This document shows, in pieces, positions 37,982 through 52,139 of a stretch of 64,000 nucleotides of DNA. The notes under the pieces were generated by a model. It was given only the letters and a program-made list of their open reading frames with translations, made no database searches and was not told the DNA's origin. This DNA is from an uncultured Candidatus Saccharibacteria bacterium (lineage in GTDB: Bacteria > Patescibacteriota > Minisyncoccia > Phycocordibacterales > UBA9973). The translations under genes and the position numbers were made by a program. Where the stretch lies: NCBI GenBank assembly GCA_964599225.1, contig CAZRDO010000001.1, forward strand, positions 15,153-79,152, in the 5' to 3' direction. Positions within the stretch are counted from its first letter, which is position 1. Each line of letters begins with the position of its first letter.

Positions 37982-38505
37982 CTGAAGAAGGTCTTTGAGA
38001 GCCCAGTTAGGGTCTCAGAATCAACAGTGCTTGATAGGATAATTATCATTTCCGATGATAACCCCAGATCTCTTTTTATGTTTTCAAACAAATGTTCATA
38101 AGGGTATGGAGAAATCCAGACAGAATTTTTAAGCATCACAAAACCAGCCTTTTTAAGTAAATAGCGAAGGCTTTCACGTTCATCTTTTCGACTCTCAGGT
38201 AGATCTAAGAGTATAATCCGCCATTTACCATCCCATTCATTCAAAAGTGAATTCTTAGTCGTAAGTTTAAGGCTATTGGCTTTAACTCGGCCAGTTTTAG
38301 AAAGTCTGGCATATTCATTTTGACCTGATGATATCGACTCAATTAAGCCGGAGTCAGTAAGATTTGAAAGTGAGCGATTTATAGCATAAACCTGCTTCTG
38401 CGTTGGCTTTTGTACTACTTTTTTGACCAAGGTAGGCAAAGAAACAGCCCTGCTTTCGGAGAGGATTTTTATGATTTCCTTTGAAATTTCAGGCTTTTTC
38501 TTCAT
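37978..38505 (-). CDS. winged-helix transcriptional regulator with PaaX-C/Cas2-like C-terminal domain
   Basis: N-terminal wHTH (…VSLPTLVKKVVQKPTQKQVYAINRSLSNLTDSGLI). C-terminal WDGKWRIILLDLPE…LRYLLKKAGFVMLKNSVWISP pattern. Convergent with grpE (4-nt overlap) and divergent from the dnaK unit. Confidence 0.45.
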   Translation of the reverse strand: MKKKPEISKEIIKILSESRAVSLPTLVKKVVQKPTQKQVYAINRSLSNLTDSGLIESISSGQNEYARLSKTGRVKANSLKLTTKNSLLNEWDGKWRIILLDLPESRKDERESLRYLLKKAGFVMLKNSVWISPYPYEHLFENIKRDLGLSSEMIIILSSTVDSETLTGLSKTFFS

Positions 38506-38509
38506 ATAT

Positions 38510-38537
38510 TTGACAGTTTATCACACATGACTATAAT
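38510..38537 (+). promoter_or_regulatory. consensus sigma-70 promoter (TTGACA-16-TATAAT) for the DUF3467-dnaK unit
   Basis: TTGACA at 38510-38515 and TATAAT at 38532-38537, with a 16-nt spacer. Confidence 0.6.
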
Positions 38538-38543
38538 ATCAAC

Positions 38544-38569
38544 ATCTATTTAGCGGTCGCGAAATAGAT
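38544..38569. promoter_or_regulatory. 8-N10-8 palindromic operator-like site at the predicted transcription start
   Basis: ATCTATTT-agcggtcgcg-AAATAGAT begins ~7 nt after the -10 hexamer. It is not a CIRCE sequence. Confidence 0.45.
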
Positions 38570-38609
38570 GTATAATACCTTATAAAATTACTAATTAAGA
38601 ACAAATACT

Positions 38610-38885
38610 ATGGTAGATCCAAAAAAAGTAGATTTTAATCAATTACCTAAGAAATTCTGTGATGGAGCACTTGGGGCATTTAGTAAGGAAGCGATAATGT
38701 TTTGTATGACATCAGGTAATAACCTAGACCCATACGCTACGACGCCACAAGTTGCTAAAAGTATCGCATTATTTTTCACACGACAGATAGAAAATTACGA
38801 GAAGCAGTTTGGAGTAATCGATACAACGCCAGCATCTATACCAAGTCCACTCCAATCATCAGATTTTGAAGATAAAAATAAATAA
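38610..38885 (+). CDS. small protein, DUF3467-like (recognised from memory of the family pattern)
   Basis: 91 aa with …TTPQVAKSIALFFTRQIENYEKQFGVI…. Directly upstream of dnaK. Confidence 0.4.
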   Translation: MVDPKKVDFNQLPKKFCDGALGAFSKEAIMFCMTSGNNLDPYATTPQVAKSIALFFTRQIENYEKQFGVIDTTPASIPSPLQSSDFEDKNK

Positions 38886-38908
38886 TTATTAATTAAAATA
38901 TAATATAT

Positions 38909-40825: not shown

Positions 40826-40860
40826 AAAAGACGCGGGCTATGTAGCCTGCGTTTTTTGTT
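40826..40860. terminator. bidirectional terminator after dnaK
   Basis: ACGCGGGCTA-tg-TAGCCTGCGT hairpin followed by TTTTTTGTTG and preceded by AAAAATAAAAG. Overlaps the stop of the convergent minus-strand ORF. Confidence 0.6.
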
Positions 40861-41320
40861 GTATGGAGAGATTTTTTTGCTGAGAATTGATTTTATCAAT
40901 CTTATCTCTCAGCTCCTCAGTCTCTTTCGAAGGTCCTTTCTTTTTTATCAGGCAAGAACGCTGAAAATGATATGCCTGTTTCTGTTTATATAATATTTCT
41001 TGTTGAGAAATATATTCATCAATTAGAAAAAATATTTCAACAATTGCCCTAATTTTTCCCTTATTTAAGTCAAGGACTTTGCTAAGATGACTATGTGCAT
41101 CAAGCTTATTTTTTTGACCAACAATGCAAGCAGTCAACTGATTTACCAAATCCTCTGATATTGCATTTGAACCAATGGTTGTGATTAATTCGCTATTGAT
41201 AAAATTAGCAATTTCAACCGCCCTCCGTTGGGGCTTTATATGCCGTATCGTATCAAGTACTTGATGACAAAAAGGGTTGGGGAAATAATTTCTTAATAAT
41301 TTAATTACACTCAGGATCAT
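40838..41320 (-). CDS. hypothetical protein (160 aa)
   Basis: Intact ORF, convergent with dnaK. No recognisable motif. Confidence 0.4.
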   Translation of the reverse strand: MILSVIKLLRNYFPNPFCHQVLDTIRHIKPQRRAVEIANFINSELITTIGSNAISEDLVNQLTACIVGQKNKLDAHSHLSKVLDLNKGKIRAIVEIFFLIDEYISQQEILYKQKQAYHFQRSCLIKKKGPSKETEELRDKIDKINSQQKNLSIQQKTQAT

Positions 41321-42886: not shown

Positions 42887-43384
42887 ATGAAAAATTCAAT
42901 TATATTTGTCGCTATTACGGTCTTAGTTCTTGGTGGAATTTACTTTATTCACAAAAGTAGTGGCGAGATTGAGAAAGCCACAACTGTCGCTGGCACCTCT
43001 TCAAGTCGTGATGTTGCACTTCTCTGTACTACTGACATGGCCACTCAATATCACATTCACCCAATACTAGAAATTATTATAAATGGTGAAAAACAGGTTA
43101 TTCCAAAAGATATTGGCATCACGCCGACATGCATGCGCTCACTCCACACGCATGATGAGACAGGCACGCTCCATGTAGAGTCACCAGTACAGAAGGATTT
43201 CACACTGGGCGATTTCTTCGCAGTCTGGGACAAACCATTTGATAGCATGCATATTCTTAACATGACAGCAACGGAACCAGGTCTTATTACAATGACCGTC
43301 AATGGTACAGAAGTTGATACATTTGAGAACACAATCCTCCATGATAAAGACCAGATTGTAATTACGGTAACTTCATTGAATTGA
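42887..43384 (+). CDS. hypothetical membrane-anchored extracytoplasmic protein
   Basis: N-terminal TM helix then a ~140 aa domain with His/Cys residues. Confidence 0.45.
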   Translation: MKNSIIFVAITVLVLGGIYFIHKSSGEIEKATTVAGTSSSRDVALLCTTDMATQYHIHPILEIIINGEKQVIPKDIGITPTCMRSLHTHDETGTLHVESPVQKDFTLGDFFAVWDKPFDSMHILNMTATEPGLITMTVNGTEVDTFENTILHDKDQIVITVTSLN

Positions 43385-43416
43385 GATTTTAGAGGCGCTT
43401 TGTTACACTAAAGCCT

Positions 43417-44448
43417 ATGAATACAAAGAAAATACGAGTTGCGATTAATGGCTTCGGACGCATTGGCCGAGCATTTCTTAAGCTCGCCTGGGAAAGATCA
43501 GAAATTGAGATTGTTGCGGTTAATGACCTTGGTTCAATTGAGAGCCTCGCATACTTACTTAAACACGACACAGTCTACCGAACATGGGGGCATGAAGTTA
43601 CAGTTCTCGGAACTGATTTAGTCATTGATGGGAAAACAGTTAAATTTATTTCTGAGAAAGACACGACAAAACTCCCATGGCGCGATCTCTCGATCGATGT
43701 AGTCGTTGAATCGACTGGTCTCTTTACTGCTTTTGATAAGGCACAATTCCATATCGACAATGGCGCGAAGAAAGTTGTCATTTCAGCACCAGCAAAGGAA
43801 GGGGATAACGCTGGAGTAAAAGGTGAGACAATATTACTCGGGGTAAATGAAGACAAATTCGGTACCTGCGATATTACTTCAAACGCTTCATGTACGACGA
43901 ATGCCGCGAGTCCTCTTATTGCGATTCTCCATGAAGCTATTGGTATCGAGAAAGCAATTCTCAATACAGTACATGGTTATACCGCGAGCCAATCGCTTGT
44001 TGATGGGCCAAGTAAGAAAGACCTTCGTGAGGGCCGTGCAGCTGCCCAGAATATCGTACCGAGCTCAACTGGGGCTGCCATTGCAGTCACCAAAGCTTTC
44101 CCTGAGCTCACAGGCCTCTTCGATGGTATCTCTATCCGTGTGCCTGTACCTGCTGGTTCAATCGTCGATGTGACATTTATTGCTAAGCGTCCTACAACTG
44201 CAGAAGAAGTGAATGGAATTCTTACTAAGGCTTCAAATGACCCGCGCTGGAAGAATATATTTGCAGTTACTAATGAACCACTTGTCTCCTCTGACATTCT
44301 TGGTAATCCTCACGCTTCAATCGCTGACCTCGCCATGACACGAGTGGTGGATGGTAATCTTGTGAAAGTCATGGGTTGGTATGATAATGAAATGGGGTAT
44401 ACAGCTACTCTCGTCGATCATGTCATCAAGACAGGGAAGACTATCTAG
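43417..44448 (+). CDS. gap: glyceraldehyde-3-phosphate dehydrogenase
   Basis: INGFGRIGR NAD site and ASCTTNA catalytic Cys motif, 343 aa. Confidence 0.95.
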   Translation: MNTKKIRVAINGFGRIGRAFLKLAWERSEIEIVAVNDLGSIESLAYLLKHDTVYRTWGHEVTVLGTDLVIDGKTVKFISEKDTTKLPWRDLSIDVVVESTGLFTAFDKAQFHIDNGAKKVVISAPAKEGDNAGVKGETILLGVNEDKFGTCDITSNASCTTNAASPLIAILHEAIGIEKAILNTVHGYTASQSLVDGPSKKDLREGRAAAQNIVPSSTGAAIAVTKAFPELTGLFDGISIRVPVPAGSIVDVTFIAKRPTTAEEVNGILTKASNDPRWKNIFAVTNEPLVSSDILGNPHASIADLAMTRVVDGNLVKVMGWYDNEMGYTATLVDHVIKTGKTI

Positions 44449-44449
44449 T

Positions 44450-44665
44450 ATGGAAACAATCTACGTAAAACTCTTAGATGAAGGAACTGAAGTATTTAGA
44501 CCAGTACCTTCAGTCGAAGTAGAAACCAATGTATATAAACTAGGTAGTTTAGAATCAACTGAAGGTGATGAAAAATGGGAATTTGAGCCAGGAAGTATAG
44601 TAACTGTAGAGAATCGAATTTTAGGTGATGAATCAGTTCCTGTTGCGATTAAGTTGGTATCGTAA
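44450..44665 (+). CDS. small hypothetical protein (72 aa) inserted immediately after gap
   Basis: METIYVKLLDEGTEVFRPVP… begins 2 nt after the gap stop and ends inside the duplicated gap-3' fragment. Confidence 0.4.
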   Translation: METIYVKLLDEGTEVFRPVPSVEVETNVYKLGSLESTEGDEKWEFEPGSIVTVENRILGDESVPVAIKLVS

Positions 44666-44730
44666 TGAATTAGCATATACAGCTACCCTTATAGAGCATG
44701 TTATTAAGACAGGTAACCAAATAAAATAAT
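44652..44730 (+). pseudogene. diverged duplicate of the gap 3' end (C-terminal ~20 codons only)
   Basis: Translates as …NELAYTATLIEHVIKTGNQIK*, versus the authentic gap end …NEMGYTATLVDHVIKTGKTI*. About 70 % nucleotide identity to 44381-44448. Confidence 0.6.
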
Positions 44731-45222
44731 ATGGAAGATATAACAAAAAACCCAGGACAAATTATAGAGGAAAAATTTAAAAAACTTTTTAACTCTAAAT
44801 ACACTATTAAAGATGGTGACTCAGTTTGTGAAGTAGAGAAAAACCTTGTACAAACCTTCGAAAAAAATAATTTTATTGCCTGTATTTTTACTGAAAGATT
44901 TAATATTAAAGCACTTAAAGATGATGGTACCTGGAATTATATTGTTGTAGTAAATGTAGAGAATAATAAATATGGAGAAACTGAACATGATGACGACGCT
45001 AAAGAAATAATCGAACAATCTGAGGAGACCCACGGAAAATTAGAAACTAGGCCTTCAATAACATACTCTGAAATTATAGACTTAAAAAGCGATACGAGAA
45101 ACTCGAACAAAGTTCACGTAACGATTAAAATGGTGGATGGTTCAGTAAAGACAGAGACCATTAAAATTGATCCTGATAGTGATTTTAATAGCAAGACGGA
45201 AGATTCTGATCAAAAATGGTAA
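44731..45222 (+). CDS. hypothetical acidic protein (163 aa) in low-GC islet
   Basis: Intact ORF, very AT-rich codon usage compared with neighbouring housekeeping genes. Confidence 0.4.
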   Translation: MEDITKNPGQIIEEKFKKLFNSKYTIKDGDSVCEVEKNLVQTFEKNNFIACIFTERFNIKALKDDGTWNYIVVVNVENNKYGETEHDDDAKEIIEQSEETHGKLETRPSITYSEIIDLKSDTRNSNKVHVTIKMVDGSVKTETIKIDPDSDFNSKTEDSDQKW

Positions 45223-45413
45223 AATATTATTGAGACTGTCAAGAAATAATAATTTTACTGAATCTCAAATCGAAAGTTTGATAACTAAGCTTCGGAGCCT
45301 AATTCCAGACGAAAACCACATTCCGTAAGGATAGAGAGATAAAGAATTTAATTGATGAGTATGAGAAAAATATTTAATTATCATTTTAACCATCTTTAAT
45401 AAAATTTGAATAT

Positions 45414-45647
45414 ATGTCAAAAAGATTAAAGATATTGCTAATAACTGCCGCACTTATTGTAGTAGCGTCTCTGCCTATAATCCCAAAACAGATAGCCACA
45501 GGAGATGTGATTCCATGCTCAAATGAAGAGTCGGACAGACAGTCATGGAATGGCGGACTACCATACATCCCTATCTGTTATAGGGAGTCTAAAATTTTTG
45601 TGAGTGCCTTCGATTATTTTATTAAATGGAATAATATTTCGTTATAA
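45414..45647 (+). CDS. small secreted/membrane-anchored Cys-containing peptide A
   Basis: 77 aa with an N-terminal hydrophobic segment (ILLITAALIVVASLPII) and a short Cys-containing ectodomain. Confidence 0.4.
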   Translation: MSKRLKILLITAALIVVASLPIIPKQIATGDVIPCSNEESDRQSWNGGLPYIPICYRESKIFVSAFDYFIKWNNISL

Positions 45648-45654
45648 AAATACT

Positions 45655-45939
45655 ATGTTAATTTTTGCTATTTTAATAATCGTAATACTAATTTTAGTAT
45701 TGCCATTCAAAAAGTCACGGAGCTTTAAGTTCTCTCTCCTGGCTATAAGTATCCTTTTAGCTATCTTTTTTGTTAGATGCATACCAGTAGCCCAGGATTT
45801 AAGCTTTTGTGAAGGAGATTGCCCAAAAACACAAAAAACTACTATAATGGGATACATCGTGAAATTGGTAGACAAGGGCTATCCTGAACCTTATGTCTAT
45901 ATGCCTGGTGAGTCAGATGGCAAAAGATTGCCTATATAA
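45655..45939 (+). CDS. small membrane-anchored Cys-containing peptide B
   Basis: About 94 aa from MLIFAILIIVILILVLPF, with two hydrophobic segments and an FCEGDCP motif. Confidence 0.4.
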   Translation: MLIFAILIIVILILVLPFKKSRSFKFSLLAISILLAIFFVRCIPVAQDLSFCEGDCPKTQKTTIMGYIVKLVDKGYPEPYVYMPGESDGKRLPI

Positions 45940-45957
45940 TAATTAATTTACATTCAA

Positions 45958-46191
45958 ATGATCAAAACAGTCATCATTATTGCAATAGTCGCACTTGGTT
46001 GGTACTCATGGACTCATCCGATCATCCCATACAAAGGTGAGAAGATAACTCTGGCTTCAATTATTAAGCCGCTCATCGAAAACCATACCGTTGAAGTTGG
46101 TTGTACGATGGAAGCTAAGATTTGTCCTGATGGCTCAGCAGTCGGTCGCAGTGGCCCATTGTGCGAATTTGAAAAGTGTCCAGGAGAATAG
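45958..46191 (+). CDS. small membrane-anchored Cys-motif peptide C
   Basis: 77 aa, N-terminal TM helix, then …GCTMEAKICPDGSAVGRSGPLCEFEKCPGE. Confidence 0.45.
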   Translation: MIKTVIIIAIVALGWYSWTHPIIPYKGEKITLASIIKPLIENHTVEVGCTMEAKICPDGSAVGRSGPLCEFEKCPGE

Positions 46192-46247
46192 AGGCTCAGA
46201 GATAGACACTTATCCTAGTCATTAAATTAATAATTAGACCTACTAAA

Positions 46248-46430
46248 ATGTCGGAAAGAACGAAAATAATTCTCTTTGGGATTGCAATTCTACTGCTTAT
46301 CTATTTTTTCGTTCCAATTGTATCGGTCTCTAATAACTGTCAGGACTTTGCTGGACCAGGATCATCTTCTTGTGAAATAGAAACCACTTGGGTACCATTG
46401 TATAAATGCCACGCTATTACTACTTGTTAG
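46248..46430 (+). CDS. small membrane-anchored Cys-motif peptide D
   Basis: 60 aa, N-terminal TM helix, then NNCQDFAGPGSSSCEIETTWVPLYKCHAITTC. Shares a C-x-D-x-x-G-x-x-S-x-C spacing with peptide C. Confidence 0.45.
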   Translation: MSERTKIILFGIAILLLIYFFVPIVSVSNNCQDFAGPGSSSCEIETTWVPLYKCHAITTC

Positions 46431-46448
46431 GTTAAATTTAAGTAATTT

Positions 46449-46931
46449 ATGAAAATTTACATTGGAGCAGATCATGCAGGGTATACACTCAAGGGCCTTC
46501 TCAAAGCCTATTTGAGCGAATTAGGGTATGAAGTAGAAGATAAAGGGGCATTTGAATTCGTTGAGCATGATGACTACCCTGATTATGTGAGCGCTGTTAC
46601 AGAATCAGTTCTAGGTACGCCTGGAAGTTTTGGTATTGTGCTCTGTGGCACAGGAGAAGGCGAGATTATGGCAGCCAATAGAGTTCCTGGTATTAGAGCT
46701 GCACTTTTCTATGGCCCAATGCTACCAAAAAGTCCCGTGGAAATTAACGGCCGAGAGAGTACTGATCCGTATGAAATTGTGAAGCTCGCCCGACTCCACA
46801 ATGATGCAAATATTCTTGCACTCTCAGCTCGCTTTATTAGTGAGGATGAAGCGCGAGAGGCAATTCGGGTATTCCTCGAAACTAAATTCTTGAACGAAGA
46901 GCGTCATGTTCGAAGGCTTTCAAAATTCTAA
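46449..46931 (+). CDS. rpiB: ribose-5-phosphate isomerase B
   Basis: MKIYIGADHAGYTLK…VLCGTGEGEIMAANRVPGIRAAL. Confidence 0.88.
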   Translation: MKIYIGADHAGYTLKGLLKAYLSELGYEVEDKGAFEFVEHDDYPDYVSAVTESVLGTPGSFGIVLCGTGEGEIMAANRVPGIRAALFYGPMLPKSPVEINGRESTDPYEIVKLARLHNDANILALSARFISEDEAREAIRVFLETKFLNEERHVRRLSKF

Positions 46932-46942
46932 TCCAAATAATT

Positions 46943-47647
46943 ATGGCCAAAATTATACCCTCAATTCTCACTGATGATTTCGAAGAAATTCGTAATAAAA
47001 TCCAACAATCTACTGCGCTTGGAGCTACTGAAGTCCAACTTGATATCTGCGACGGTGTATTTGTGCCAAGCCAGACGTGGCCGTATGCGAATAATGATGC
47101 TGGTGGAGAACTCGCGAGAATTTTAAGCGAAGAAGAAGGATTACCGCTATGGTCTCAAATTGATTATGAATTGGATCTTATGGTCTCCAGAGCGCATGAG
47201 CAGTTTGCGCTCTATTTGAAACTTGGTGCTAAGCGCATTATATTTCATATCGAAGCAGAGGGAAATCTTGATGAGTTTAAGGAATTCCTTGAGGGAATTG
47301 ACCTGGTCACACGTGACTTTACTAAAATCGGAGTCTCGATTGATATTGAAACTCCCATCGAGAAATTATTTTCTCTTCTCCCATATATAGATTTCGTTCA
47401 ATGTATGGGCATAGATCACATTGGTGCACAAGGAGAAGAGTTTAATCCAAAAGTCATAGAGAAAATTAAGGCACTGAATACTTATGAAAGCGACATGGAA
47501 ATCTCAATCGATGGAGGGGTAAATCTAGAGAATGCTCCCACTCTGATTGAAGCAGGTGCGAGTCGTCTGATGGTGGGCTCGGCACTATGGAAGAGCTCTA
47601 ACCCAGCCGATACTTTCCGAAAACTCCAAGAAATAGCAGAGGATTGA
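46943..47647 (+). CDS. rpe: ribulose-phosphate 3-epimerase-like TIM-barrel protein (divergent)
   Basis: IPSILTDDFEEI…QLDICDGVFVP…VSIDGGVNLENAPTLIEAGASRLMVGSAL follow the Rpe layout, but the first metal-binding His is replaced by Gln and there is an insertion. Confidence 0.6.
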   Translation: MAKIIPSILTDDFEEIRNKIQQSTALGATEVQLDICDGVFVPSQTWPYANNDAGGELARILSEEEGLPLWSQIDYELDLMVSRAHEQFALYLKLGAKRIIFHIEAEGNLDEFKEFLEGIDLVTRDFTKIGVSIDIETPIEKLFSLLPYIDFVQCMGIDHIGAQGEEFNPKVIEKIKALNTYESDMEISIDGGVNLENAPTLIEAGASRLMVGSALWKSSNPADTFRKLQEIAED

Positions 47648-47671
47648 GAAATGATATACTAGTGCCTCAAG

Positions 47672-49441
47672 ATGACCCAAAGTGAAGCACTCACTATTTT
47701 AAAAACTGGTGCCAATGTCTTTCTGACTGGAGAGCCAGGCTCGGGCAAAACACATACTATTAATGAGTACGTGAAGTATTTACATGCACACGCCATCACA
47801 CCTGCGATTACTGCTTCAACAGGTATTGCTGCCACACATATTGGTGGGATGACGATACACTCATGGAGTGGACTCGGGATTCGAACGGAGCTTGATCGCT
47901 ACGCACTTGATAAAATCGCAACGACTGAATATGTTGCCAAGCGTATTCATCAAACCAAAGTACTCATCATTGATGAAATTTCAATGCTCCACTCAAACAT
48001 GCTCACAATGATTGATCGAGTGATTCGAGAAGTGAAAGGTACTGATGAACCATTTGGAGGGATGCAAGTGATTTTAGTTGGAGATTTTTTTCAACTACCA
48101 CCTATTTCCAAGGAAAACGGCAGTCGAGGTATTTCGAAAACTAGAAAATCAATATTTGATGAGACTGAATTCACGTATGATTTTTCTGAGAATACGAAAC
48201 CAGCTCTTCCAGAACTTGATTCAGATTTTGCGTTTAAATCATCATCTTGGGCAAGCTTAAAGCCGGTTGTCTGTTATCTAACTGAACAACATCGCCAAGA
48301 CGATGATGTGTACCTGAGTGTACTTAGTGCAATTCGTAGCAATAAATTTGATAGCACACATCAATCCTACCTTGAGGAGAGAATTGTGACTGATAGTAAT
48401 CTGCCTGAGGCCATGACACGACTCTTCTCACACAATGCCAACGTTGATGAACTCAATAACACGATGCTAAAGGGGTTAGCAAGTGTGGCCCATACGTACA
48501 CAATGTCAAGTCAGGGCAAGGAAGCTCTTGTCGCATCACTTAAAAAAGGCTGCCTCTCACCAGAAGAGCTAACCTTAAGAGTAGGGGCAAAAGTAATGTG
48601 TACCAAAAATAATCAGAATGCTGGTTTTGTAAACGGCACTCTCGGTGTGATTATTGATTTTGAGAAAGGCTCTCTTAGTCCAATTATTAAAACAACGAGT
48701 GGTAAACAAATTACGATCGAGCCGCAGACATGGAGTATTGAGGAGAACGGTAAGATTCGGGCAAGTATTTCTCAAATCCCACTTCGCCTCGCTTGGGCAA
48801 TCACGGTGCACAAAAGCCAGGGTATGAGTCTCGATGAAGCACTCATGGATCTGCGCGATATATTTGAATATGGACAAGGCTACGTCGCACTTTCACGCGT
48901 ACGAAGACTCTCTGGGCTCCACATCATTGGCTGGAATGAAAAAACATTTAAGGTACACCCTGAAATACTCAAAGTTGATGAAATGCTTCGGACTCAGTCT
49001 GAAAATGCAAGAATTGCATTTTCAGCGCTATCCGATAACGAACTAACAACAATGTACTCTAATTTTATTACTGCATCAGGCGGGAGACTTATGTCGAATA
49101 TTACGACAGATACACTCCATATAAAAAATAAAGAGCTTTCAACTCGTCACATAACTTTGGGATTACTGCGTGAAGGTCACTCTCTCGAAGAAATTATAGA
49201 CACACGAAATCTCAAAGCTGAAACCATACTCTCACATATTGAAGACCTCATTCGAGAGAGAGTGATTGCACCTCATGAAATTACTCGATTACTAAAACCA
49301 GAGGTAACAGATTCTCTTTCCTATATTCACAATATATTTAGAGAACTTGATACTGACAAATTGACCCCAGTTTACGAAGCACTCGACGGTAAATACTCAT
49401 ATACTGAGCTTCGCATTGCTCGGATTCTCCTAAACGCATGA
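47672..49441 (+). CDS. Pif1/RecD-family 5'-3' DNA helicase
   Basis: Walker A GEPGSGKTH, motif II LIIDEISM and the family-specific TVHKSQGMSLD near the C-terminal end of the core, plus a ~150 aa C-terminal extension. Confidence 0.75.
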   Translation: MTQSEALTILKTGANVFLTGEPGSGKTHTINEYVKYLHAHAITPAITASTGIAATHIGGMTIHSWSGLGIRTELDRYALDKIATTEYVAKRIHQTKVLIIDEISMLHSNMLTMIDRVIREVKGTDEPFGGMQVILVGDFFQLPPISKENGSRGISKTRKSIFDETEFTYDFSENTKPALPELDSDFAFKSSSWASLKPVVCYLTEQHRQDDDVYLSVLSAIRSNKFDSTHQSYLEERIVTDSNLPEAMTRLFSHNANVDELNNTMLKGLASVAHTYTMSSQGKEALVASLKKGCLSPEELTLRVGAKVMCTKNNQNAGFVNGTLGVIIDFEKGSLSPIIKTTSGKQITIEPQTWSIEENGKIRASISQIPLRLAWAITVHKSQGMSLDEALMDLRDIFEYGQGYVALSRVRRLSGLHIIGWNEKTFKVHPEILKVDEMLRTQSENARIAFSALSDNELTTMYSNFITASGGRLMSNITTDTLHIKNKELSTRHITLGLLREGHSLEEIIDTRNLKAETILSHIEDLIRERVIAPHEITRLLKPEVTDSLSYIHNIFRELDTDKLTPVYEALDGKYSYTELRIARILLNA

Positions 49442-49471
49442 TATACCCGCACACTTATTTTTTGCTTAAAT

Positions 49472-49735
49472 ATGTTTTACGTATACATACTCAAAAGTGA
49501 AATAGATAATGAACTATATATTGGCTCAACAAATGATCTAAGACGTAGGATTAAAGAGCACAATGAAGGCAAGAGTTTTTCTACACAATATAGAAGACCA
49601 TTTATTTTAATCTATTACGAAGCATATAGGGATGAGAGTGACGCAAGGAAAAAAGAAGCCTCATTAAAACTTCGTGGCAGTTCTCGTTTCCATTTGAAAC
49701 AGAGGATTATTAATTCACTTATAGCTAAAAAATAA
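49472..49735 (+). CDS. GIY-YIG domain small nuclease, copy 2
   Basis: MFYVYILKSE…LYIGSTNDLRRRI…RRPFILIYYEA. Paralog of the 3878..4141 gene with an identical RRPFILIYYEA block. Confidence 0.7.
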   Translation: MFYVYILKSEIDNELYIGSTNDLRRRIKEHNEGKSFSTQYRRPFILIYYEAYRDESDARKKEASLKLRGSSRFHLKQRIINSLIAKK

Positions 49736-50623
49736 GTGTGCGGGTATAATTACAAAATGTATTTGTCCGACTCCAAAATTAAAGAACTTGAGCTCACAGC
49801 AAATTCCATTCGCGAATCGATAATCAAAATGCTACTGGAAGCGGGAAGTGGTCATACTGCTGGACCCCTTGGCATGACTGATATCTTCACCCTCCTTTTC
49901 TTTCATGTACTCAAACATGATGCAAAGAATCCTTCGTGGGATGAGCGCGATCGCGTAGTGCTCTCAAATGGTCATATTTGTCCGGTCTATTATGCGACCA
50001 TGGCCCATGCTGCATATTTCCCTATAGAGGAGCTTCAGACACTGCGTAAATTTGGCTCACGACTCCAAGGTCACCCGCACAGAGAATTTATGCCATGGCT
50101 TGAGACAAGTTCTGGACCACTCGGAAGCGGACTCTCTCAAGCAGTCGGCATGGCACTTGCAATTAGAATTGATGAAGGCAATAGTTCTGACAAATTTGTG
50201 TACTGTCTCACCTCTGATGGCGAACACGATGAGGGTAATACCTGGGAGGGGATTTTATTGGCGGCTAAGGAAAAACTTCGAAATTTAATTGTCATCGTTG
50301 ATCGCAATAATATCCAGATTGACGGCTTTACTGAAGATATTATGCCGCTAGATGACATGGCCAAAAAATATGAGAGCTTTAATTGGCATGTGCAGGAAGT
50401 TGATGGGCATAATTTTGAAGCGCTCAACGATGCCATCTTGAAAGCTAAAGCAGTGTACGAGAAACCTTCAGTCATAATTGCCCGCACAATCCCAGGCAAA
50501 GGCGTGAAAGAATTCGAACGAGATTTTCATTGGCATGGTAAAGCACCGAATAAAGATGAAGCGATGATGGCATTGAAAGAATTGCGGACCTTAGGTGGTA
50601 AAATTAAAAGCGAACATCAATAA
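49736..50623 (+). CDS. tkt: transketolase, N-terminal (TPP-binding) subunit
   Basis: …GSGHTAGPLGMTDIFTLLF…GHPH…LETSSGPLGSG…TSDGEHDEGNTWE. Start probably at 49757. Confidence 0.88.
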   Translation: MCGYNYKMYLSDSKIKELELTANSIRESIIKMLLEAGSGHTAGPLGMTDIFTLLFFHVLKHDAKNPSWDERDRVVLSNGHICPVYYATMAHAAYFPIEELQTLRKFGSRLQGHPHREFMPWLETSSGPLGSGLSQAVGMALAIRIDEGNSSDKFVYCLTSDGEHDEGNTWEGILLAAKEKLRNLIVIVDRNNIQIDGFTEDIMPLDDMAKKYESFNWHVQEVDGHNFEALNDAILKAKAVYEKPSVIIARTIPGKGVKEFERDFHWHGKAPNKDEAMMALKELRTLGGKIKSEHQ

Positions 50624-50624
50624 T

Positions 50625-50801
50625 ATGAAAGATAAAATTCCTAAAATACTAATTATTATCGGGTTTGTACTTTTAGCTTTTCAAATATTCTTGTTATTTT
50701 CAGATAGTTGGTCAATAAAAGGCGGATATTCACTTAAAATGATACCTCTTGGACTCCTAGCACTTTTGATCGGATTTACAAACCTGAAAGCTAGAAAATA
50801 A
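50625..50801 (+). CDS. small hypothetical membrane protein
   Basis: Two hydrophobic helices in ~58 aa, lying between the tkt halves. Confidence 0.3.
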   Translation: MKDKIPKILIIIGFVLLAFQIFLLFSDSWSIKGGYSLKMIPLGLLALLIGFTNLKARK

Positions 50802-50893
50802 ATGCTAAATCAAAATCTAAAACTAAATTATAAACTCACGGAATGAAGTATTATGAGAAATTTCGACTACGCCGTTAAAACTAATTTAAAAAT

Positions 50894-51118
50894 ATGAGAG
50901 ATCTAGTTCTTATAATTGTTATTGGAGGATTGATATCTGTCGGCTATTATTTTTGGCAAGATCATCAAAATTCTCTCACCCTCACTCAATCACACGAGAG
51001 CCAATGTGAAGACAATATGAAAACTATGAAATTTGATTCCCAGCAAGCAAGTGACGATTACTTTATCAACTGTCTTTCTGGCCAAATTGATTTACAGCAA
51101 CCCGGACTTCATGATTAA
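50894..51118 (+). CDS. small hypothetical membrane-anchored protein
   Basis: 74 aa with an N-terminal TM helix and two Cys in the ectodomain. Confidence 0.3.
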   Translation: MRDLVLIIVIGGLISVGYYFWQDHQNSLTLTQSHESQCEDNMKTMKFDSQQASDDYFINCLSGQIDLQQPGLHD

Positions 51119-51146
51119 ATTATGAATAATATTATAGATAGTTAAA

Positions 51147-52139
51147 ATGCTTAATCCTGAACAAAAACTAAATCAGAAACTTTTCCTTGATGATGTCGAG
51201 CAGGTTCCTATTCGTAAAGGATTTGGCGAAGGCTTAGCTGAAGCCGGTGTGGATAATAAAAACATCGTTGCACTTTGTGCCGACCTTACTGAGAGTACCC
51301 AAATGCATCTTTTCAAAGATAAATTCCCAGAGCGATTTATTGAAGTCGGCGTGGCGGAGCAGAATCTTGTCACAGTTGCTTCAGGTATGGCAGCAATGGG
51401 GAAGCGAGCATTTGTCTCTTCATATGCCATGTTTAGTCCTGGACGCAACTGGGAGCAAATTAGAACGACTATTACCTATAACGATCGCGGAGTTGTGATC
51501 GTGGGCTCCCATGCTGGTATCTCAGTGGGACCAGACGGTGGTACGCACCAAGCAATTGAAGACATGGCGCTTATGAGAATACTTCCAAATATGATTGTCC
51601 TCTCACCCTCTGATGCAATTGAAGCCAAGAAAGCCACAATTGCCCTGGCAAAGATCAATACACCAACCTATTTGCGACTCGCTCGTGAAAAAACCCCAGT
51701 CATGACCACCACCGAGACACCATTTGAGATTGGTAAAGCACAGATTTTCTACCGCCCTGACGGTATTGCACATGTCGGTATTATTGCCACAGGAGCGCTT
51801 GTCCACAAGGCACTACTCGCCGCACGTGATCTTGAGAAAAAGGGAATTAAGGCACTTGTGGTGAATCTTGCGACAATAAAGCCACTTGATCACGAGACAA
51901 TACTTACTGTTGCCAAAGAAACTCGTAAAATTGTCACCGTCGAAGAGCATCAAATCGCTGGCGGAATGGGAAGTGCTGTAGCTGAATACTTAGCAAGCAT
52001 CTTTCCAGTACCAATTGAGTTTGTTGGAGTACACGACAAATATGGCCAGTCAGGCACACCAGCTGAACTTATTGAGCACTATGGTATGGGAAAGAATAAT
52101 ATTATTGAAGCCGTACAGAAAGTTATTGACCGAAATTAG
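51147..52139 (+). CDS. tkt: transketolase, C-terminal (pyrimidine-binding + C-terminal domain) subunit
   Basis: …FIEVGVAEQNLVTVASGMA…SHAGISVGPDGGTHQAIEDMALMR…. Confidence 0.88.
   Translation: MLNPEQKLNQKLFLDDVEQVPIRKGFGEGLAEAGVDNKNIVALCADLTESTQMHLFKDKFPERFIEVGVAEQNLVTVASGMAAMGKRAFVSSYAMFSPGRNWEQIRTTITYNDRGVVIVGSHAGISVGPDGGTHQAIEDMALMRILPNMIVLSPSDAIEAKKATIALAKINTPTYLRLAREKTPVMTTTETPFEIGKAQIFYRPDGIAHVGIIATGALVHKALLAARDLEKKGIKALVVNLATIKPLDHETILTVAKETRKIVTVEEHQIAGGMGSAVAEYLASIFPVPIEFVGVHDKYGQSGTPAELIEHYGMGKNNIIEAVQKVIDRN

Follow-up and report, generated by a model that had tools for sequence, protein, structure and literature searches.

Integron cassettes each consist of one open reading frame (ORF) and a recombination site and are arrayed by a tyrosine recombinase acting in trans, and the minimal mobile elements of Neisseria are variable cassettes that lie between conserved genes and are exchanged by transformation and homologous recombination. 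A closer precedent for the locus described here is the 3' end of icd in Escherichia coli, at which the element e14 and phage 21 integrate, supplying an alternative terminus to the gene and displacing the fragment icdC (PMC13626634, citing Hill et al. 1989). We analysed a 64,000-nucleotide stretch of the patescibacterial contig CAZRDO010000001.1 (positions 15,153 to 79,152 of the forward strand; hereafter, the window), in which the glyceraldehyde-3-phosphate dehydrogenase (GAPDH) gene, gap, is followed by a second, diverged copy of its own 3' end. An original prediction based on the letters of this DNA had noticed this copy and interpreted it as the mark of a ~1.7-kb AT-rich cassette acquired at the end of gap. 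In our analysis, the repeat is probably the scar of an integration at the gap 3' end that brought a replacement terminus, through recombination of the phage type between phage and bacterial attachment sites (attP and attB). Four features carry this interpretation:

43417 to 44448, forward strand: gap, intact, an ORF encoding a GAPDH of 343 aa (Pfam Gp_dh_N, 4.9e-35; Gp_dh_C, 9.3e-53).
44377 to 44448, forward strand: working gap terminus, from W319 to the stop codon, attL-like; copy 1 of the repeat.
44450 to 44665, forward strand: o72, an ORF of 71 aa and the sole gene between the two gap ends, starting 1 nt past the gap stop codon (TAG).
44655 to 44729, forward strand: displaced gap terminus (WYRNELAYTATLIEHVIKTGNQIK, then stop), an attR-like scar with its W codon at 44655 and its TAA at 44727 to 44729.

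The terminal 24 codons of gap recur in frame in the displaced copy with an identity of 72–78%: the repeat search gave 78% over 64 nt (44375–44438 against 44653–44716), and alignment of both copies from the W codon to the last shared codon gave 50 matches in 69 nt (72.5%). The working end reads WYDNEMGYTATLVDHVIKTGKTI and the displaced one WYRNELAYTATLIEHVIKTGNQIK, each closed by a stop codon. They differ at 13 codons, 6 of them by synonymous changes and 7 by mostly conservative replacements, among which V/I and D/E are variants present in working gap genes of other species; past the stop, a T followed by ATGGAA is likewise common to both. The first ~18–21 nt of the displaced copy (TGGTATCGTAATGAATTA...) are of the degenerate type found in other such remnants and in the left arms of phage attP sites, and the remainder keeps a functional-looking gap C-terminus. 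The upstream GAPDH is full length and shares 77–92% amino acid identity with the gap products of 160 related loci; its Pfam coverage extends to residue 322, 21 residues before the C-terminus. Across the whole window, no other direct repeat of 40 nt or longer with its copies up to 6 kb apart was convincing. A profile built from 80 functional gap ends matched the displaced copy with E = 2.7e-9, and this value, together with the recurrence of extra gap ends in 20 loci (see below), excludes the chance similarity that the original prediction had considered. The repeat is not an assembly artefact either, because a contig from an independent sequencing run (L191; L numbers designate loci) is 100% identical over 43945–44891, a segment spanning both junctions. 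The second gap end, as first noticed, is thus real.

We compared the window with 80 relatives, taken as one genome per species (81 loci; Nomurabacteria/Paceibacteria metagenome-assembled genomes with gap 79–92% identical), and with a second set obtained by a metagenome scan, which together provided 136 pooled non-redundant assessable loci. The order gatB-gap-rpiB-rpe is conserved in ~146 related Paceibacteria/Nomurabacteria genomes, with extra genes frequently intervening between gatB and gap. With the profile, 13 of the 81 loci of the first set proved to contain extra gap ends (16 in total), as did 6 loci of the metagenome set (7 in total); at least one extra end occurs in 20 of the 136 pooled loci. 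The carriers are scattered over the gap tree beside remnant-free sisters. In nearly all remnants whose left edge can still be read, the copy starts with the W codon of the WYDNE motif, often with ACA immediately before the TGG, and lacks any gap sequence from upstream of W; this edge was uncertain in four weak or decayed remnants (L013, L026, L073 and the second copy of L080). Two remnants stand in series in four loci, the distal one being more decayed in L030, L037 and L080 and both scoring alike in L098. The WYDNE motif is kept in 80 of 80 working ends. The first six or seven codons of the remnants are degenerate (D replaced by N, R, S, H or G; M by L, V, I, T, K, P or S), with some of these states common to unrelated genomes: TGGTATCGTAATGAATTA is identical in the window and L080. 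In fact, the left part of the window remnant, WYRNEL, equals that of the L080 remnant in 18 of 18 nt, and its NEL state is that of the phage attP (WYSNEL). The remaining codons of the remnants are GAPDH-like and differ mostly by synonymous changes. The closest relative found by the metagenome scan had 87% amino acid identity, and the window's own empty site was not found in that scan. Transposon-related genes were also observed beside some remnants, namely an IS30-family transposase together with a MazF-like toxin between the gap stop and the remnant of L058 (2825–4832), and a Y1_Tnp-like ORF between the two remnants of L030 (7910–8605).

Copies of the gap end are also carried by phages. The gap-end pattern matched one IMG/VR contig, which begins inside gap and continues past the stop with a terminator and phage genes (RusA-like, ParB-methylase and portal/Mu-F). 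A search with the portal led to related contigs: L173 and L168, which begin within gap, and L169 and L170, which possess only a 24-codon mimic of the gap end beginning exactly at W. In L170, a Phage_integrase gene (Pfam 9.8e-18) is followed by a helix-turn-helix (HTH)-like ORF of 79 aa, a promoter-like leader and then the mimic, which reads gctgACA followed by TGGTACAGCAATGAACTAGGGTACAC and ends in TAG, encoding WYSNELGYTYTLVNHVIAAGRLV and a stop (in its longer form, gctgACA followed by TGGTACAGCAATGAACTAGGGTACACATACACCCTCGTAAATCATGTCATTGCTGCCGGTAGATTAGTCTAG); next come a terminator and early genes identical in kind to those found past gap in prophages. Judging from this gene order, the mimic next to the integrase is an attP. 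A second phage lineage (L189) exhibits the same succession of integrase, HTH and leader up to ACA followed by TGGTATGATAACGAAATGGGGTATAC, with a different right arm. The phage integrase is at most ~25% identical to any integrase in GenBank phages, and no description of gap as an attachment site or of this phage family was found in the literature collection that we searched.

The corresponding integrated state was visible in L175, L173, L168 and L154, where gap is directly followed by the same phage genes (among them portal, methylase and Rep_O). In L154, a metagenome contig, lepB, pth and dnaE lie upstream of gap, which shows that this integration is chromosomal. From GGGTACAC through the stop codon and past it, the gap end of L168 is identical to the L170 attP, but its left part is of the host type; because its right part is that of the attP, the L168 GAPDH ends in a phage-supplied ...NHVIAAGRLV. 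In L086 and L098, the DNA immediately 5' of the remnants is similar to the L170 leader, as is a site in L016, and the remnants of L058, L098, L101, L141 and L016 are preceded by a related element of ~115 nt that contains a TTGCTA-N17-TGGTACAAT box; Rfam detected nothing in this conserved leader. The 45 nt upstream of some remnants had also been considered as a gap 5' region, as if left by an internally deleted gap; this candidate was rejected, as gap upstream regions differ from this element, which is phage-derived. A 7-nt inverted repeat (ACATGGT ... ACCATGT) covers the W-Y and D-H-V codons and is extended by the non-gap ACA; it was seen in the remnants or attP of L058, L098, L101, L141, L086 and L170. 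In L053 (6955–7032), the working gap ends in ...KTGKTISH, to be compared with the prophage-supplied end ...KTGNTISH of L175, which hints at a past integration leaving no detectable remnant.

The make-up of the two ends in close relatives agrees with such an exchange. L006, which has an insert, and L008, in which gap and rpiB are 1 bp apart, have gap genes ~95% identical, but the last ~30 nt of the L006 working end are only ~68% identical to L008, and the native ends of L008 and L085 share 82–91% identity with the right part of the L006 remnant. The same arrangement, a working end with a native left and a foreign right part and a remnant with a degenerate left and a native right part, was found in L037, L056, L058 and L096. 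In all these cases (L006/L008 included), the identity to the nearest relatives is 0.59–0.68 for the right part of the working end and 0.82–1.0 for that of the remnant. Such a pattern is what a reciprocal exchange leaves when the gap end of the chromosome recombines with an incoming gap-end mimic. The G+C content at third codon positions, tried as a native/foreign marker, was dropped, as the native-like remnant of L037 exceeds its gene body in this respect. L098 (935–2987) exhibits a different feature: over the first 47 nt, rare YTNT codons included, its working end does not differ from the first remnant, and beyond that point the two diverge, which suggests gene conversion between the copies.

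In the mechanism that we propose, the ~24 codons that close gap, starting with the TGG of WYDNE and including the stop, would be the attB of integrative elements of this patescibacterial clade, and temperate phages with a tyrosine integrase would carry an attP mimicking that end. Through recombination inside the segment, gap would keep its native left part and acquire its right part from the phage, leaving the enzyme whole, and a hybrid copy whose left part derives from the element and whose right part is native would end up beyond the insert. By analogy with the relatives, we infer that the pair in the window arose in the same way. The copy at 44655–44729 would be the displaced attR-type one and that at 44377–44448 the matching attL-like hybrid, with a native left part and, from about 44395/44403 onward, an insert-derived right part; the foreign origin of the latter is proposed because of the analogy with L006/L008, L037, L056, L058, L096 and L168/L170. 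The right part of the remnant (TLIEHVIKTGNQIK, then stop), followed 1 nt later by the ORF o163, looks like a former gap-o163 junction, and o163 was probably the neighbour of gap before the insertion. The rest of the AT-rich spacer would be ordinary flexible content of a hypervariable gap-rpiB interval. As to the delivery of a one-gene insert such as that of the window, an integrase could have acted in trans, the insert could be the leftover of an excising phage, or it could have been transferred later, as a unit, by homology. The part of the original prediction that proposed an integration into the gap end with a replacement terminus is thereby supported by the phage attP, the prophages and the hybrid ends of the relatives.

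Several observations weigh against this mechanism. The nearest relative of the window, with 77% nucleotide identity, is too distant for typing the halves of the two window copies as native or foreign, so that the degenerate left part of the remnant is the sole part that fits the hybrid pattern. A rare GCT codon (in YTAT) is present in both window copies and elsewhere only in the working end of L093, which would be unexpected under a simple reciprocal exchange. The gap stop and the displaced end are merely 204 nt apart, and there is no integrase or phage gene in the window spacer. More generally, the phage integrase had no tblastn match in the window, nor in any of 164 related loci, and no integrase or phage gene was found within 5–6 kb of gap in any remnant-bearing locus. 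A complete attL-prophage-attR arrangement was not seen in one contig, nor was any prophage right end reached: a walk along the prophage contig ended 662 nt before the contig end, with no integrase or attR in the walked part. The inferred crossover lies at ~nt 18–26 in some loci and at ~nt 47 in others and, together with the identical tract of L098, this variability could reflect homology-driven exchange or gene conversion. Finally, inserts of a single gene, described below, do not look like the phages: o72 had no homologue in the sampled phage loci and neither had the inserted ORFs of 12 loci, except for one weak 40-aa match, and their layout differs from that of the two attP regions, as the ORF abuts both ends and there is no terminator or leader.

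The gene between the two copies provided some clues about what is inserted. The last 11 nt of o72, including its stop, overlap the displaced gap end in a different frame. A search in 5.8 billion proteins yielded just seven homologues, and two of these overlap the stop codon of a gene whose product ends in a Colicin_E5 RNase domain; one such product is an Rhs-type protein. Homologues, P0004 and P0007 among them, lie directly 3' of Colicin_E5-domain proteins or similar tips in L083/L084, L184 and L186; that of L186 is an extra one, obtained from a separate scan of viral contigs, and also follows a similar toxin tip. In this high-GC viral contig (4388–5219), the colicin-E5-like tip and the o72 homologue lie ~0.7 kb 3' of a large phage ORF; on this gene content, the predicted colicin-E5-like toxin-immunity pair is also carried by phages of unrelated hosts. 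The structure model of o72 is all-beta and confident (pLDDT 87.6); it had no match in the PDB at E <= 0.001, and no relationship of o72 to immunity proteins of solved structure, ImmE5 included, is thus detectable. In the window o72 follows gap, with no cognate toxin beside it. We consequently regard o72 as an orphan homologue of putative immunity proteins against colicin-E5-type toxins.

Single-gene inserts are not restricted to the window. In ~10 other genomes, a single unrelated ORF (57–220 aa) starts 1–13 nt past the gap stop and ends within 0–11 nt of the W of the remnant, with neither an integrase nor the phage leader. On account of their content, these inserts are not simply decayed prophages of either of the two phage lineages seen. 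L026 and L096 have gap bodies 72% identical, inserted ORFs 82% identical and an identical stop/start junction, which indicates that at least one such insert has moved horizontally as a unit. It is conceivable, and we propose it only tentatively, that one-gene inserts are integrase-less cassettes, made of an ORF and a ~75-nt gap-end mimic, mobilised in trans by phage integrases and stacked in arrays. If true, this would be an integron-like capture of genes among ultra-small bacteria, with the coding end of GAPDH in the place of 'attI', in which small conflict genes (immunity proteins, toxin-antitoxin genes and other small ORFs) would be traded.

Why a second copy should be kept is a separate question. 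It might be retained for a function, as a promoter (TGGTAYGAY resembles the extended -10 box of the clade) and/or as a short upstream ORF that couples its translation to that of the gene behind it; this idea can explain the keeping of the copy, not its origin, and is compatible with an integration scar. A TGnTAtAcT box 6–7 nt before the ATG in gap genes of the clade, a promoter-like site over the WYDN codons of the window (44360–44388) and the D to N changes that produce TGGTATAAT or TGGTACAAT in several remnants are all in line with it. So are the 10 of 23 remnants that are intact, have an in-frame ATG just before W and are followed by the next ORF 1–8 nt past their stop, as well as L016, in which a phage-derived promoter and a truncated remnant lie ~60 nt 5' of rpiB with a second promoter-like box between. 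Nevertheless, promoter-like matches amounted to 12 against 11 in shuffled sequence, an absence of enrichment, 10 of the 23 remnants are disrupted, and in the window remnant CGT and TTA weaken the box and the start codon. We therefore consider a retained function rather doubtful.

Two side observations concern the promoters themselves. The gap upstream regions (window 43381–43416, and L001, L006, L024, L030, L046 and L056) contain the TGnTAtAcT box and no visible ribosome-binding site, which suggests that gap mRNAs are leaderless in this clade, a prediction from these upstream regions. In L016 (8727–8885), the phage-type promoter and leader are followed by ATGACATGGTACGAC, a remnant truncated after WYD, and a promoter-like TGATATAAT box stands immediately before the rpiB ATG; the outward-facing phage promoter may contribute, as predicted from its position, to the transcription of rpiB-rpe.

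Alternatively, the insert might have been acquired from another Paceibacteria genome by RecA, with the conserved gap end as an anchor of homology and no site-specific recombinase, either through Campbell-type insertion of a circularised fragment or through homology-facilitated illegitimate recombination that left a diverged second copy. This would agree with the lack of an integrase near any remnant, with an apparent crossover that varies by locus (including the 47-nt identical tract of L098) and with the exchange of spacer content between genomes, as in the minimal mobile elements of Neisseria. However, the W edge (ACA before TGG) is fixed in nearly all 23 remnants of unrelated lineages, which is unexpected for illegitimate joins; the same edge is that of the phage attP beside the integrase, and ~75 nt at ~75–80% identity are a poor substrate for RecA. 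These points make RecA an improbable author of the scars, and we favour phage-type recombination at the gap end; homologous recombination may be a route of secondary spread of existing arrays.

A purely local origin, in which the gap end was duplicated (in tandem or as a 'long target') upon insertion of o72 and the unused copy then diverged, fits the geometry of direct repeats flanking a small insert and would account for the rare YTAT codon in both copies. Yet synonymous changes make up about half of the differing codons, and the V/I and D/E replacements occur in functional gaps (e.g., LIEHVIKTGN in L047), so that the copies diverged inside working genes of different lineages and not through neutral decay; moreover, the relatives that can be tested have the foreign right part in the working copy. 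This makes a local duplication very improbable. A diversity-generating retroelement, which the 3'-end repeat and the small intervening ORF superficially resemble (as VR-avd-TR, the variable and template repeats being VR and TR), was rejected on its mismatch spectrum, as mismatches are not adenine-specific (of the 19, 3 have A in one of the copies and 7 have it in the second), there is no ORF of reverse-transcriptase size in 43000–47600 and gap is a housekeeping enzyme gene, leaving this alternative, like chance similarity, a negligible probability.

Beyond the displaced end, the interval up to rpiB and its right flank comprise the following features:

44731 to 45222, forward strand: o163, an acidic ORFan of 163 aa starting 1 nt past the stop of the displaced gap end.
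45223 to 45413, no strand: AT-rich stretch (190 nt) with no convincing ORF in the ORF scan.
45414 to 45647, 45655 to 45939, 45958 to 46191 and 46248 to 46430, forward strand: four small ORFs of the ORF list, each with a hydrophobic N-terminus and a Cys-containing tail.
46449 to 47647, forward strand: rpiB (from 46449) and rpe, the conserved right flank (Pfam LacAB_rpiB and Ribul_P_3_epim; synteny in 73 of 81 loci).

The acidic protein, the four small ORFs and the low GC content after gap (0.29–0.34 over 44450–45950, against 0.42–0.49 in gap and rpiB) are all present as originally described. Where the original prediction placed short decayed reading frames (45223–45413), there is simply a stretch that lacks a convincing ORF. 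Low GC is nevertheless not a mark of this insertion: the spacer is poorer in GC than gap in 65 of the 66 relatives with a measurable spacer (the exception being L066), and such near-universality makes it a property of the flexible interval. Neither do the gap-end copies delimit the ~1.7-kb stretch as a cassette, as they bracket o72 only and the remainder lies outside them and is mosaic. One of the small ORFs, p77b (45958–46191), belongs to a Cys-motif family spread across Patescibacteria. In L190 (Logan SRR26424594), aligned with 45958–47720 of the window, p77b adjoins rpiB at ~83% nucleotide identity, like rpiB-rpe; p60 (46248–46430) is missing, and the DNA 5' of p77b is unrelated to that of the window. 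Because L190 keeps p77b-rpiB-rpe under these circumstances, the AT-rich spacer is a mosaic of pieces of different ages, built piecemeal and not as one cassette.

In 5.8 billion proteins o163 had only its self-match, and its structure model is unusable (pLDDT 39). The stretch 45223–45413 had no similarity in any of 191 loci. No islet ORF reached the threshold for a Pfam, PADLOC or PHROG family, and the search of phage and plasmid databases advised by the original prediction found no match of the islet in GenBank phages or PLSDB plasmids. Rfam detected two tRNAs only in the window, and exact look-ups of the window GAPDH and o163 returned no record. The comparison of the interval in relatives, also advised, revealed conserved flanks with spacers of differing content: they range from 0 to 4795 bp (73 loci) and contain recurring ORF families such as dapF, DEAD-box helicase, YceI, IS30-family transposase and MazF-like toxin, and the window spacer ORFs have no homologue in the spacers of other loci. 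Further patches with GC 0.27–0.35 occur in the window at ~38000–38900, 40850–41300, 49100–49800 and 50600–51200, between housekeeping genes of GC 0.42–0.49; the 64-kb repeat search found no gene-end duplicate alongside them. The gatB-gap interval is variable too (window 42887–43384; L001–L080), and the membrane-anchored protein of 165 aa that it encodes in the window was found in a few relatives only.

We finally compared this locus with described systems. The minimal mobile elements of Neisseria are not known to duplicate the end of their target or to be accompanied by a phage attP; they are alike in that the gap-rpiB interval holds different gene sets between conserved flanks. The displacement of toxin tips in Rhs and contact-dependent inhibition (CDI) systems resembles our case in that a new 3' end and a small downstream gene arrive, the old 3' end is orphaned and, in the window, the insert is an immunity homologue. 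It differs in that the displaced tip belongs to GAPDH, not to a toxin, and that the replacement tip encodes the same function.

The likeness to integrons lies in the promoterless ORF held tightly between copies of a ~75-nt site, in the arrays, in the evidence for a cassette moved between distant hosts and in the more decayed second copies of L030, L037 and L080, though not of L098. In contrast with integrons, there is no IntI/attI platform, gap stands at the head of the array, the flanks are free of recombinase genes and the only recombinase found is the phage integrase. Moreover, an essential gene contributes its coding end as the site, which is probably not an attC hairpin: the consensus fold of the remnants with the leader was weak (-10.9 kcal/mol, with 3 covarying pairs and the 7-bp ACATGGT/ACCATGT inverted repeat), the R-box being checked by inspection. 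Integrons, Rhs tips and Neisseria elements thus each share traits with this locus and fail defining ones.

The nearest system is that of e14 and icd where, according to PMC13626634, an integrase-bearing element sits at the 3' end of a central-metabolism gene, the enzyme stays functional and the fragment lies at the far end, the two ends differing mostly by synonymous or conservative changes. The window possesses the flanking repeat of the target end and the intact upstream gene, gap being full length. An integrase inside the bracketed element is absent from the window, where only o72 is found, and the attP beside an integrase is known from the related phages L169/L170 and L189, not from the window's own insert. 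Unlike in e14/icd, the target is gap, the hosts are Patescibacteria and the integrase is only distantly related to those of GenBank phages; in the window and ~10 other genomes the bracketed insert is a single small ORF that lacks an integrase, and the arrays contain as many as two displaced ends. We know of hardly any account of gene exchange in Patescibacteria (candidate phyla radiation, CPR), nor of a means to manipulate them genetically. In this context, a defined attB (the last 24 gap codons, in at least 146 species-level genomes) and two phage lineages with integrase and attP would constitute a candidate tool for site-specific integration and a marker of lysogeny for the phylum. An AT-rich islet with a duplicated gene end also becomes datable and can be dissected, as the scar shows which gene came last. 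Lastly, the recurrence of one-gene inserts raises the possibility that phage integrases move small conflict genes in and out of an essential gene's end in the manner of an integron.

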